NCBI GenBank assembly: GCA_009912575.1
Contig: WNDP01000005.1
Coordinates: forward strand, 30,500 to 62,499
Direction: 5' to 3'
DNA: 32,000 nucleotides
Source: Acinetobacter bereziniae
GTDB taxonomy: Bacteria > Pseudomonadota > Gammaproteobacteria > Pseudomonadales > Moraxellaceae
Part shown: positions 23,732 to 30,981 of the stretch, in pieces
Position numbering within the stretch: the stretch's first letter is position 1
Layout of the letters: each line of letters begins with the position of its first letter
Notes under the pieces: model-generated
Seen by the model: only the letters and a program-made list of their open reading frames with translations
What the model was told of the DNA's origin: nothing
Databases searched by the model: none
Position numbers and translations under genes: made by a program

Positions 23732-23759
23732 ATTTTGCATAACGAATATTATGTTACTT
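23732..23759 (+). other. dif-like XerC/XerD site L1 (ATTTTGCATAA-CGAATA-TTATGTTACTT)
   Basis: 10/11 XerC-arm and 9/11 XerD-arm matches to ATTTCGCATAA-N6-TTATGTTAAAT. Confidence 0.7.
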
Positions 23760-23765
23760 AACTTG

Positions 23766-23846
23766 CTCTCCAGGACAAATTATCCTGGTCTAGATTTGTC
23801 CTGGAGAGTTGTACAAACATTTATTAATCCTGGCTGCGCCAGGATT
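23766..23846. repeat. left att spacer: two hairpins
   Basis: Perfect 15-bp stem CTCTCCAGGACAAAT (23766-80) / ATTTGTCCTGGAGAG (23794-808). Perfect 9-bp stem AATCCTGGC (23826-34) / GCCAGGATT (23838-46). Confidence 0.75.
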
Positions 23847-23872
23847 TTAGGGTGTGCAATCTCTGACGAGTT

Positions 23873-23901
23873 ATTTAACATAAAATGAAGTTATGCGACT
23901 T
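23873..23901 (-). other. dif-like site L2, inverted relative to L1
   Basis: Plus strand reads ATTTAACATAA-AATGAAG-TTATGCGACTT. The XerD arm is 11/11 canonical and the XerC arm 9/11, with a 7-nt centre instead of 6. Confidence 0.65.
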
Positions 23902-24150
23902 CAGAATGACATAAAGTTGAAAGTTATGATTGATTATAGATTTGAAGGAAAAAAAAGAGTTGGTGGGGCTACAATTGGTATTACAGCATCAAAGGGAAGA
24001 GATGGTCTTTATACGATTTATGGTGGAATGTATGATTTAGATGCTGTTCCAACATCTAAATTATTAGGATCTAATATAAAAACTATTGATCAAATTAAAT
24101 ATGAAGCAAAATTATTTTTTAATTTATCGAAAATAGAAGATATTTCTTAA
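23893..24150 (+). CDS. hypothetical protein (prophage left-end orphan)
   Basis: 85-aa ORF followed by a strong terminator. No recognisable motif. The start may be the internal ATG (MIDYRFEGKK...). The first ATG lies inside dif-like site L2. Confidence 0.45.
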   Translation: MRLQNDIKLKVMIDYRFEGKKRVGGATIGITASKGRDGLYTIYGGMYDLDAVPTSKLLGSNIKTIDQIKYEAKLFFNLSKIEDIS

Positions 24151-24156
24151 TTTAAA

Positions 24157-24187
24157 AAGAGTCCACGTTTTTTAATGGTGGACTCTT
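24157..24187. terminator. bidirectional terminator AAGAGTCCAC-N11-GTGGACTCTT
   Basis: Perfect 10-bp stem with a T-rich loop/flank, between convergent ORFs 23893-24150 and 24204-24473. Confidence 0.7.
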
Positions 24188-24203
24188 GTACCATAATGGT
24201 ATT

Positions 24204-24473
24204 TTATTCAACCTGACGTCCTTTATATTGTTCATTTGGATAAAGTTTTCGCCATGATTTGTCTGAGCGTTCCCAAATAGCATTTCCTTCAGTTAATTTA
24301 CGAAATTCTTTTAAAACACTTTTAGAAATTGCTAAATTTCCATTGTCATTTTGATAGACAAAAGTTTTTCCAAATAATTTAGCAATTGAGTACACTGCTT
24401 GTTCTTGATAAAGGCGACCTAATTTATCTAGTTGCTCCTTCATCCAATTCGCTACGTCTATTTCTGTTGTCAT
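24204..24473 (-). CDS. hypothetical protein, second gene of the repressor operon
   Basis: 89 aa, starting 24 nt downstream of the RHH gene on the same strand. Basic C-terminus. No motif recognised with confidence. Confidence 0.6.
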   Translation of the reverse strand: MTTEIDVANWMKEQLDKLGRLYQEQAVYSIAKLFGKTFVYQNDNGNLAISKSVLKEFRKLTEGNAIWERSDKSWRKLYPNEQYKGRQVE

Positions 24474-24497
24474 TTTATACCTGTTAAAAATGTTAAT

Positions 24498-24689
24498 TTA
24501 TTTGGGAATAATTACATTCCCACTTGCACCAACTTCAATAAATTCAATGCCTTGCTCAATTAGAATATGAACAAGTTCACTATCTCTAATTGGCTGTTGT
24601 CCTTTCTGAATAAGTATTTTATTCAATTCAACAGCCTTCTTTCTCAAGGCTTCTTGCTCTTGATCGTTCAGGCGAACACTTTGAACCAT
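24498..24689 (-). CDS. ribbon-helix-helix (CopG/Arc-like) putative phage repressor
   Basis: The ORF track extends to 24806, but GGAG sits 8 nt before the ATG at 24689. The 63-aa product MVQSVRLNDQEQEALRKKAVELNKIL...IRDSELVHILIEQG fits a beta-strand/helix/helix RHH pattern. Divergent from the replication module, like rstR in CTXphi. Confidence 0.6.
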   Translation of the reverse strand: MVQSVRLNDQEQEALRKKAVELNKILIQKGQQPIRDSELVHILIEQGIEFIEVGASGNVIIPK

Positions 24690-24704
24690 CTTTAAATCTC
24701 CATA

Positions 24705-24810
24705 GTCCACATGTGGACGTGTTTTCAATAATACTTGCATTTTTGCATGCAAATATTGTGCATGCATATATGCTTGTGGTAAATTGATAAAAATGCATTT
24801 ATGCATGCAT
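24705..24810. promoter_or_regulatory. divergent promoter/operator region with palindromes
   Basis: GTCCACATGTGGAC (24705-18), TTTGCATGCAAA (24742-53), TGCATGCA (24759-66), ATGCAT (24792-97), ATGCATGCAT (24801-10). Confidence 0.55.
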
Positions 24811-25096
24811 GTCTTCAGAGTCTCAAATTGGGCTGGAATTTATCATAATGAGCATAGTTACTTTTAAAAATAATCTTGATTTTATACAAGCCGCTTTCAA
24901 TCAGATTGCCAAAATAGTTGCCGAGCATGGTCATCCTTGCCTAGACGTATGCTGTCCTGCTGAATCAACAGAACAATGTCTTGAACATTTGGCTGTCGTC
25001 GCAAATGACTGGTCGTATGACTACTCACTCATTGATGCCCACCTAGAAACTTATAAAAAAGCCAATGCTGAAATTCGTGAATATTTAGGAGAGTAA
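24809..25096 (+). CDS. hypothetical protein upstream of the replication initiator
   Basis: 95 aa (or 82 aa from the ATG at 24848). His/Cys cluster HGHPCLDVCCPAESTEQCLEH. The stop lies 1-4 nt before the Rep start. Confidence 0.5.
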   Translation: MSSESQIGLEFIIMSIVTFKNNLDFIQAAFNQIAKIVAEHGHPCLDVCCPAESTEQCLEHLAVVANDWSYDYSLIDAHLETYKKANAEIREYLGE

Positions 25097-30011: not shown

Positions 30012-30126
30012 CCATACATATCGTCACAAATAAAATTAAAATAAGTTTTATCATATAGTTAGGTGAATATGATAACCATACATATTGTCGCATTTAGTCA
30101 TGACTAAAAAAGAAGGAGAGGAAATA

Positions 30127-30345
30127 ATGTTTAAATTTATTGGAATTACATTAGTTACCACATCGATATTACTTGTAGGCTGTGGTAAAAATTCTGAACA
30201 AAAAGAATTAGAAATACGTCAAGAACGCGCAGCTCAAAAAGGCAATGGATTAGACAATTTCGACCCCGATAAACCCGAAAAAACTAATCAGCAGCATAAA
30301 ACCAATAATGGTTTGGATAGCTTTAATCCTGATAAAAAACAGTGA
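30127..30345 (+). CDS. small lipoprotein with internal repeat (prophage cargo position)
   Basis: AAGGAG 8 nt before the ATG at 30127. Lipobox LLVGC. NGLDNFDPDK and NGLDSFNPDK repeats. The ORF track starts at 30085, but the RBS favours 30127. Confidence 0.6.
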   Translation: MFKFIGITLVTTSILLVGCGKNSEQKELEIRQERAAQKGNGLDNFDPDKPEKTNQQHKTNNGLDSFNPDKKQ

Positions 30346-30492
30346 AATTGAGCTGCTTAAAGGCATAAAATTGTATAAAACACATCAATCTATGATTGAT
30401 AGGGTTTTAACAATTATAGTGGCTTAAGTAGCAAGCAAGGACTGAAATTTTTTATTTCTTAATGAAAATAACAGACGCGCTAGGTTGAATAT

Positions 30493-30699
30493 ATGCGATA
30501 TAAGCGCTCAATTGGTGCAATGCGTAAAGAAGATTGGCAGCAACTTATTGAAATGTTAGATGAGTATCTGTTTTTTGTTCAACAAGACAATAGTGCAAGC
30601 AATGATAAAATTAATGATGTAAAACTTTTGATTCATAAACTACAACAACATATAGATGGACCAGTACAGCAAAGTTATAGTTTTAATCGTTGGTCATAA
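30493..30699 (+). CDS. hypothetical protein
   Basis: 68-aa helical-looking ORF followed by a hairpin at 30706-30733. No motif recognised. Confidence 0.45.
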   Translation: MRYKRSIGAMRKEDWQQLIEMLDEYLFFVQQDNSASNDKINDVKLLIHKLQQHIDGPVQQSYSFNRWS

Positions 30700-30705
30700 T
30701 TTTAA

Positions 30706-30733
30706 TTTCCCGCAACCTATAATATGCGGGAAA
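30706..30733 (+). terminator. stem-loop TTTCCCGCA-N10-TGCGGGAAA
   Basis: Perfect 9-bp stem 7 nt after the stop of 30493-30699. First of a series of hairpins in the phage intergenic region. Confidence 0.45.
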
Positions 30734-30785
30734 CGATAGGCGATATTTGCCTCATGTACCCAGACATTGAAGCCATAGCCACGCA

Positions 30786-30816
30786 GACTTGCGTAGGCTC
30801 GACTAATACGCAAGTC
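30786..30816. repeat. hairpin GACTTGCGTA-N11-TACGCAAGTC in phage intergenic region
   Basis: Perfect 10-bp inverted repeat. Candidate origin or packaging-signal structure. Confidence 0.5.
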
Positions 30817-30830
30817 GAGTAGCGATCTGA

Positions 30831-30858
30831 TTTCTGCATAACTTATATTATGTTCATT
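30831..30858 (+). other. dif-like XerC/XerD site R1 (TTTCTGCATAA-CTTATA-TTATGTTCATT)
   Basis: 8/11 and 9/11 arm matches to canonical dif. Closely resembles L1 (shared TGCATAAC..ATATTATGTT). Confidence 0.65.
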
Positions 30859-30864
30859 AGGATA

Positions 30865-30940
30865 CTCAGTAACGTGATGTATAATCGCAGATCATCACGT
30901 TACTGAGCTGTAGCTACAAACAGTGTTGTGTAGGCTACAG
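30865..30940. repeat. right att spacer: two hairpins
   Basis: 16-bp stem CTCAGTAACGTGATGT (30865-80) / ACATCACGTTACTGAG (30892-907). CTGTAGC (30908-14) / GCTACAG (30934-40). TGTAGCTACA at 30909-18 is itself palindromic. Confidence 0.75.
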
Positions 30941-30953
30941 TCTTAGATATCTT

Positions 30954-30981
30954 ATTTAACATAATATACATTATGCGAAAT
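30954..30981 (-). other. dif: canonical chromosome dimer resolution site dif
   Basis: The reverse complement reads ATTTCGCATAA-TGTATA-TTATGTTAAAT. It is identical to E. coli dif at 25 of 28 positions, and all three differences are in the outer XerC arm. Confidence 0.85.

Follow-up and report, generated by a model that had tools for sequence, protein, structure and literature searches.

An inovirus at the dif site of Acinetobacter bereziniae as part of a two-element array, probably joined on the XerD-arm side

The inovirus and its four dif-like sites

We analysed a stretch of 32,000 nucleotides from Acinetobacter bereziniae (assembly GCA_009912575.1, contig WNDP01000005.1), which we call the window, and the filamentous phage, or inovirus, that it carries at dif, the chromosome-dimer site used by XerC and XerD, the recombinases of the host. 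The inovirus genome unit is 7081 bp long (23884..30964, + strand). At both of its ends lies a module of two dif-like sites that are separated by a spacer. A first-pass annotation, made from the sequence alone, had listed these four sites, and all of them are present where it placed them. Each site consists of a XerC arm, a central region and a XerD arm; in both modules the XerD arms point inward to the spacer and the XerC arms outward.

The left module begins with L1 (23732-23759, + strand), which reads ATTTTGCATAA CGAATA TTATGTTACTT, and ends with L2 (23873-23901), whose top strand is the minus strand and which reads AAGTCGCATAA CTTCATT TTATGTTAAAT, with a central region of 7 nt. The left spacer between them (23760..23872, +) has 113 nt and folds, as DNA, into two internal hairpins. 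The right module begins with R1 (30831-30858, +), which reads TTTCTGCATAA CTTATA TTATGTTCATT and has its top strand on the coding strand; its XerC arm has one extra base and its central region shares the ending TATA with dif. The right spacer (30859..30953, +) has 95 nt and again two internal hairpins, here with compensatory changes. It is followed by R2 (30954-30981, - strand), ATTTCGCATAA TGTATA TTATGTTAAAT, which is a perfect gamma-proteobacterial dif. A search with a dif pattern, allowing at most three mismatches, matches L1 and R2, with 0.00 matches expected in 100 shuffles. About 300 bp to the right of R2 there is a gene for a LysR-family regulator (31278..32000, -), which is the chromosomal flank conserved next to the XerC arm of dif and adjoins dif also in three further genomes (G195, G182 and G171). 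The sequence thus bears out the first-pass annotation on R2 and its LysR neighbour. With a perfect dif beside this flank at one end of the prophage and a site of the L2 type, which we call X, at the other, the element is a dif-bounded integration.

Nearly all genes of the phage are on the plus strand; only the genes for an RHH repressor and a DUF6953 protein are on the minus strand. Besides these two, Pfam and PHROGs identify phrog_20873, Rep_trans, an ssb-like protein, coat B, a TspB-like pIII, a pVI-like protein (DUF2523), Zot, a lipoprotein and phrog_13740. The same scan of all open reading frames (ORFs) between L2 and R2 found no integrase, transposase or serine recombinase. The host has XerD (TIGR02225 at 359 bits on contig C313, above the curated cut-off) and a second Xer-like gene, XerC-like, on contig C3 (264 bits). 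Relatives of the phage with an identical arrangement of the ends are found in IMG/VR contigs, with a Rep identity of 84-97%. A distant blastn search with the whole prophage against the phage collection gave no matches, and a sequence search of the phrog_20873 protein against the PDB gave matches at chance level only.

Arrays, free forms and the position of the crossover

Next, we asked which parts of the four sites belong to the phage and which to the host. For this, arrays were mapped in 10 viral contigs and in 20 loci, each at most 20 kb long, that came from 19 further genomes of the genus. A 301-nt query over the module of R1, spacer and partner site has matches across much of the genus, and often there are several of them in the space of a few kb. 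The strict pattern of the whole module is found in 44 of 247 species genomes, compared with none for a reversed-pattern control. Written in the orientation of the window, the arrays have the order X, plus-strand genes, R1, spacer, X and so on up to a last dif-type site, after which the chromosome follows. We see that this chromosome-proximal site has the central region of dif, TGTATA, in every array mapped, and that the internal junctions are all of the X type (CTTCATT, CTTTATT, CGTAATT or CGAAxCTA). For example, the 29-mer of L2 (AAGTCGCATAA CTTCATT TTATGTTAAAT) forms every internal junction in G109, G182, G187 and others. The XerD arm of the partner site is TTATGTTAAAT in 46 of the 47 modules.

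Free circular forms show what the phage brings along. Two records of A. johnsonii XY27, NZ_CP070869.1 (L087, 6400 bp) and NZ_CP070868.1 (L089, 6689 bp), entered the database as small "plasmids" of the non-mobilizable kind. Both turn out to be complete inovirus circles that encode Zot, Rep, coat and TspB-like proteins, probably in their replicative form. Each of the two circles has exactly one R1 (CGTATA), the spacer and one X (CGTAATT), and neither contains a perfect dif. The metagenomic viral contig L072 (7669 bp) has a terminal overlap of 83 bp and is therefore a circle of 7586 bp. It holds exactly one R1 (CTTATA) and one X (CTTCATT), the latter being the sole site that is not R1, and again no perfect dif. 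Finally, contig C196 of the same assembly as the window (4684 bp) has the side with LysR, dif, spacer and R1 at 96% identity to the window, then a mini-element of 2.1 kb with X, in one exact copy, at its end; it has neither L1 nor the left spacer.

Since the XY27 circles, L072 and C196 show the arrangement of R1, spacer and X, the phage attachment site (attP) of the window phage in its free form is R1, the right spacer and an X that is identical to L2. The first-pass annotation had named an attP unrelated to either module as the outcome that would speak against it; the free forms of the relatives instead give R1, spacer and X. The window phage is a single integration of 7.08 kb that extends from L2 to R2. 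R2 is the live dif and consists of the host's XerC arm and central region (ATTTCGCATAA and TGTATA, 30965..30981, -), which remain with the LysR flank, and of the XerD arm (30954..30964, -), which, according to the order of the arrays and the free forms, was donated by site X of the phage. L2 is composed the other way round. Its XerD arm TTATGTTAAAT (23873..23883, -) was that of the previous dif, which the array order traces to an older element (see below), and its central region CTTCATT and XerC arm AAGTCGCATAA (23884..23901, -) are the phage's own and form the left end of the prophage.

Neither junction looks like a hybrid, because the exchanged XerD arms are identical. The premise of the first-pass annotation, namely that one CTX-type event produces paired sites at one prophage end and, at the opposite end, a lone site that can be recognised as a hybrid, is thus not applicable here. 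The crossover lies on the XerD-arm side, as the mirror of CTX-type arrays, in every array and every free form examined. At the level of the crossover position, this agrees with the variant Xer mechanism at which the first-pass annotation had hinted. Since the exchange point is at or within the XerD arm, whose sole Xer cleavage position is that of XerD, an exchange at the XerD position of the bottom strand is probable, and the junctions are compatible with it. The perfect and invariant XerD arm of the phages also makes sense, because this arm becomes part of the host dif. Two other crossover positions were considered and rejected. A crossover on the XerC side of X would give junctions of ATTTCGCATAA with CTTCATT and of AAGTCGCATAA with TGTATA; no such junction of the window phage's family is found in any array. 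A crossover at R1 would put X inside the prophage, beside the spacer, and this is not seen.

Taken as a whole, the best explanation for the locus is an array of two elements at dif that are joined on the XerD side, and we give it a probability of about 0.7. We are most confident in the architecture of the array, which we regard as very well founded.

The phages of these arrays share several further features. In the window, a hairpin with the loop TTATAATATG lies inside rep (25425..25451, +) and is a putative nick site of Rep, and a second hairpin with the loop TATAATATG (30709..30735, +) is a putative origin. In a comparison that covered the window, L045, L046, L051 and C196, full phages have two hairpins with the TTATAATATG loop, the first within rep at about codon 110 and the second directly in front of R1. 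Mini-elements of 2 kb, comparable to RS1 or miniphage satellites, fill many arrays (G109 twice, G007, G035 and C196) and carry a hybrid hairpin in which the left arm of the rep copy and the right arm of the pre-R1 copy are fused in the loop. Because this hairpin is a hybrid joined in the loop, the mini-elements resemble products of a Rep that starts at one origin-like hairpin and stops at the other. The phrog_13740 protein (68 aa, 30493..30699, +) is the last gene before attP and is kept in the free circular forms. It is always the final gene before attP in full phages (for example L087 1637-1849) and is missing from the mini-elements, and we consider it a candidate accessory factor for integration or packaging.

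A second inovirus family, with a Rep that is 37-44% identical, occurs in L051 (9799-17987), L056 (10392-12914) and L069 (8533-10046). Its members are oriented the other way and occupy the XerC-arm side of the dif-type site, which there has a foreign XerC arm (GATTCGTATAA, ACTGCGTATAA or GCTTCGTATAA) followed by TGTATA, as expected for the classical XerC-side crossover. Given these XerC-side elements, arrays are able to grow on both sides of the live dif.

The source assembly (5.16 Mb, contamination estimate 2.9%) contains, on C196, a second version of the region with LysR, dif, spacer and R1. The LysR-dif-spacer-R1 stretch of C196 stops at the same point as contig C281 (compared over C281 and window 30700-32000), and beyond the mini-element of C196 there is an integrase-like stretch that is also present in C304 at 96% identity. 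The second version could reflect a strain mixture or a duplicated terminus region. One sequence of 211 bp terminates about 40 contigs of G000 (for example C196 4474-4684); probably a high-copy insertion sequence fragments this assembly.

The remnant of an older element

The left module has another origin than the right one. Its central region in L1, CGAATA, belongs to a different subfamily, whose own X reads CGAAxCTA (G037, G171 and G035), and sites identical to L1 are found at the right ends of elements in G037, G137, G107 and G009. For the left spacer we were not able to find a close relative in the 247 genomes, neither among the R-type spacers nor attached to this type of phage. The 143 bp before L1 (23589..23731, +) are about 80% identical to the sequence upstream of an identical L1-type site in G037. 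Within them, positions 23591-23638 code for the final 15 residues (KLMFIRLDHHIDRLR*) of a phrog_13740-like protein, and a small gene of the same family stands immediately before attP both in the window phage and in the free circle.

To the left of these 143 bp lies a gene for a TonB-dependent receptor (21444..23588, -; Pfam Plug and TonB_dep_Rec_b-barrel) that is truncated at its 5' end. Its ORF, which starts with MALTIPTLVYA, is about 19 N-terminal codons shorter than the homologues in G092 and G123. The nearest homologues of the receptor are 76% identical, and in G123 the gene is 220 kb away from dif.

In summary, an older and different element, E1, has left its right end in the form of L1 and the left spacer, with L1 as its R1-type arm that was not exchanged and the spacer as the loop of its attachment hairpin; the 143-bp stump is the last part of the E1 body. 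Since some 19 codons are missing from the N-terminal part of the receptor gene and the stump has its counterpart at the end of the element in G037, we conclude that a deletion took the body of E1, its left junction and these codons of the receptor gene. The idea that the left module is a duplicate of the right one was rejected, as the spacers are unrelated and the central regions come from different subfamilies. The first-pass annotation was thus right that at least two elements integrated successively, and CGAATA in L1 and the unrelated left spacer point to the older one being of a different kind. Of its second model (Model B), two parts hold: R2 is the live dif, and the left module is what remains of an element that lost its body when the 5' end of the receptor gene was lost. 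The integration of the minus strand that it also implied is not needed, because the coding strand fits if the bottom strand is exchanged at the XerD cleavage position.

Palindromes of the GTGGACGT type follow the coding end of the stump (window 23661-23720), and CATGTGGACGT recurs upstream of the RHH repressor gene of the phage (window 24700-24720). The palindromes in the E1 stump and near the repressor may be shared operator sites of related repressors. Stumps like the left module are common, since several species retain R1 with the spacer or the spacer alone beside dif with no element body (L054/G123 9192-9364; L064/G100 6490-6605). They probably persist because the adjoining dif cannot be lost.

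The attachment hairpin, its possible mechanism and known systems

We then asked whether R1 and X form a common structure. For this, attP sites were rebuilt by joining R1, spacer and XerD arm from the right end of an element to the central region and XerC arm from its own left end, and 15 distinct attP sites were aligned. Their consensus fold has 54 pairs, with 96.8% paired and compensatory changes at 18 pairs. None of 500 shuffles was as good, and slid controls reached 28-41% paired. The rebuilt attP of the window phage folds with -37.3 kcal/mol (z = -9.3). In the stem between R1 and X, positions 2 and 3 of the central region and one flank pair vary on both sides. Within one element, the central regions of the left X and the right R1 begin with the same 3-5 nt (CTT/CTT, CGTA/CGTA, CGAA(T)/CGAAT), and flank bases are shared as well; these co-varying partners are 1-7 kb apart in the prophage. 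Adjacent R1 and X from different elements, on the other hand, do not match (twice in L046, and L1 with L2 in the window).

Because G.T cells exceed A.C cells in the alignment (22 to 7), the coding strand is favoured as the strand that folds. The stem is paired on the XerC side (GCATAA and a further 3-5 nt) and open on the XerD side of the central region. In a large majority of modules the central region of R1 ends with ATA, like that of dif, while its first three bases vary. Since the open part of R1 ends with (T)ATA as in dif, the bottom strand of dif cleaved by XerD (5'-TATA...) could pair with R1.

From these observations the following history emerges. E1 integrated first at dif, the 7.08-kb inovirus then entered the dif left by E1, and a later deletion left only the last 143 bp of E1, L1 and the left spacer. 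The coding strand of the free attP has, in 5' to 3' order, R1 (XerC arm, central region, XerD arm), the 95-nt spacer, and X' (XerD arm, 7-nt central region, XerC arm), where X' is X in inverted orientation. Recombination with dif took place at X, probably on the bottom strand at the boundary of the central region and the XerD arm, which is the XerD cleavage position. For the mechanism we propose that the substrate would be the folded (+) single strand, in which R1, the phage's non-exchanged arm of attP, would pair with X' into a Xer site whose XerC side is base-paired and whose XerD side stays open, with the right spacer as the loop; XerD would exchange one pair of strands, and replication would resolve the junction. 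We consider this combination of hairpin substrate and XerD catalysis plausible, and give the single-stranded hairpin as substrate slightly better than even odds.

Several points weigh against this picture. Both of its mechanistic steps are read from sequence alone, where the pairing of a hairpin looks the same as the identity of two inverted duplex sites. The co-variation comes from about four independent subfamilies, and the bottom strand of X matches dif at two of the three first central bases. The identical XerD arms place the crossover only between the boundary of central region and XerD arm and the outer end of this arm, and the circular junction of the window phage itself is taken from its relatives. 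A match to a XafT-like (DUF3653) activator was not found at E <= 1 in nine small ORFs of the phage, although a divergent factor is possible; the small ORFs gave no informative Pfam match. Finally, the pairing with R1 that we propose is at odds with a plasmid site described below (pGX3-1), where TATTGA is the central region.

The alternative that survives best has the same sites and the same XerD-side crossover, but it is X of the double-stranded circle that recombines with dif, XerD first, as in TLCphi or in a VGJphi with swapped roles. R1 and the spacer hairpins would then be a packaging signal, a minus-strand origin or a control of excision. TLCphi is an established case in which a double-stranded attP integrates with XerD acting first (10.64898/2026.06.12.731946; PMC9226527), and intergenic hairpins of inoviruses are known as packaging signals and origins (10.1101/2023.12.30.573655). 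Free circular forms do exist, and since L2 and R2 are direct repeats, the reverse reaction could free the circle. However, R1 retains both Xer arm cores in at least 44 species, and a packaging signal would not need the co-variation of R1 and X at positions 2-3 of the central region and in the flanks. X alone has a central region of 7-8 nt that is unrelated to dif, and the dif-like bases beside the XerD arm are those of R1. Furthermore, the XerD arm of X is perfect, unlike that of the TLC attP, and a DUF3653 protein is absent from the small ORFs scanned. We therefore regard this alternative as unlikely.

Another alternative is that XerC makes the exchange with the non-coding strand integrating, that is, Model B taken literally, or that a full reaction of XerD and XerC is followed by segregation and by selection of the functional dif. 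A complete reaction would leave a heteroduplex central region, and half of the replicated progeny would match what we observe. In known inoviruses, though, the packaged, single-stranded form is the coding-sense (+) strand, which counts against integration of the non-coding strand. A junction of the host XerC arm with a phage central region occurs in 0 of the 47 modules, and with central regions of 7-8 nt and 6 nt that have no homology, the second exchange should be blocked by the rule described for CTXphi (PMC4246890). This makes both variants very improbable.

The first model of the annotation (Model A), in which L1 is the hybrid, L2 and the left spacer are the phage attP, and R1 and R2 open a second element to the right, agrees with the textbook CTX rule of a plus-strand hairpin cut by XerC, but it is refuted by the free circles and the circular contig, where R1 and the spacer come directly after the structural genes and before X, so that R1 and the right spacer are the window phage's own, while the left spacer and the L1 central region are foreign to this type of phage, L2 and the left spacer are not one attP, and R2 abuts the conserved LysR flank.

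How does the array with XerD-side joining compare with known systems? Three classes of elements that exploit dif have been described, CTX, VGJ and TLC (10.64898/2026.06.12.731946, a preprint of June 2026). For CTXphi, homology beside the XerC arm is decisive and missing homology on the XerD side blocks XerD (PMC4246890); the CTXphi rules used in our comparison are taken from papers. Like CTXphi, the window phage is an inovirus with no integrase of its own at dif, with two inverted dif-like sites about 90-95 nt apart, neither of them canonical as a duplex; on the (+) strand the two fold together as a forked hairpin, and part of its central region is unpaired. The arrays also contain truncated satellite copies that are comparable to RS1. 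Unlike in CTXphi, the XerD arms and not the XerC arms would flank the loop, and the homology to dif lies beside the XerD arm. The regenerated dif retains the XerC arm and central region of the host and stands on the XerC-arm flank of the array, whereas the CTX exchange is made by XerC and the arrays of Vibrio form their new dif on the side of the XerD arm (10.64898/2026.06.12.731946). The crossover of the CTX type, which joins a phage XerC arm to the host central region and XerD arm, does not occur for this family in any array examined.

With TLCphi the window phage shares that the XerD side of dif takes part in the crossover and that arrays are built at dif. TLCphi, which encodes XafT (DUF3653), has a double-stranded attP with a defective XerD arm and a dif-compatible central region and recombines completely, first by XerD and then by XerC. 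The window phage, in contrast, has a perfect XerD arm, an unrelated central region of 7-8 nt and a second inverted site, and DUF3653 was not found in the small ORFs scanned. As in the VGJphi type, there would be a single strand exchange between non-homologous central regions, presumably resolved by replication, and direct repeats flank the prophage, so that excision is conceivable. However, VGJphi-type elements have a single double-stranded attP and a top-strand exchange by XerC, and here we see two sites and a XerD-side junction.

The modules also resemble the pdif modules of Acinetobacter plasmids, in which cargo lies between inversely oriented XerC/D-like sites and whose mode of movement is unsettled (10.1101/2024.04.09.588662). 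Classical pdif modules, on the other hand, have neither a conserved structured spacer of 95 nt nor phage genes. A family member of 1 kb with only a DUF4145 gene lies at a pdif site of the A. towneri plasmid pGX3-1 (L088, locus 3001-4023), and in many A. baumannii plasmids (for example L090, locus 3927-4004) the second hairpin of the spacer is fused to a pdif site. It looks as if the phage-type module had left its footprints in these Xer sites of plasmids.

Since the XerC-side crossover of CTX and the features of TLC (XafT, a compatible central region and a defective XerD arm) are lacking here, we set the family of the window phage apart from both classes, and we file it as an IMEX (integrative mobile element exploiting Xer) that matches none of the three described classes. 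Papers on filamentous phages of Acinetobacter only guess at a use of XerCD (PMC11209303), and the searched literature on Acinetobacter, IMEX, XerD, hairpin attP and pdif does not describe such an arrangement. A fourth class of IMEX, in which a filamentous phage with a (+) single-stranded hairpin attP is joined to dif by a bottom-strand exchange of XerD as the exact mirror of CTXphi, and which also acts at pdif, is a tentative proposal to which we give somewhat less than even odds.

A folded attP of two sites that is joined on the XerD side would be a new combination beyond CTX, VGJ and TLC. If true, either recombinase could be recruited to a single-strand hairpin, and one would have to ask what activates XerD when neither FtsK nor XafT does so. 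In the arrays of this family, the newest element stands beside the XerD arm of the live dif, and the live dif remains on the XerC-arm flank. This polarity is opposite to that in Vibrio and changes the annotation of dif regions in Acinetobacter. The module at plasmid pdif sites links phage integration to the unsolved movement of pdif modules, and, if the mechanism holds, insertion at pdif could be one route by which the pdif modules of Acinetobacter originate. It would also mean that an IMEX of the XerD side has spread through the genus, as the distribution of the strict module pattern indicates, and that the hosts carry a dif regenerated with a XerD arm donated by a phage.

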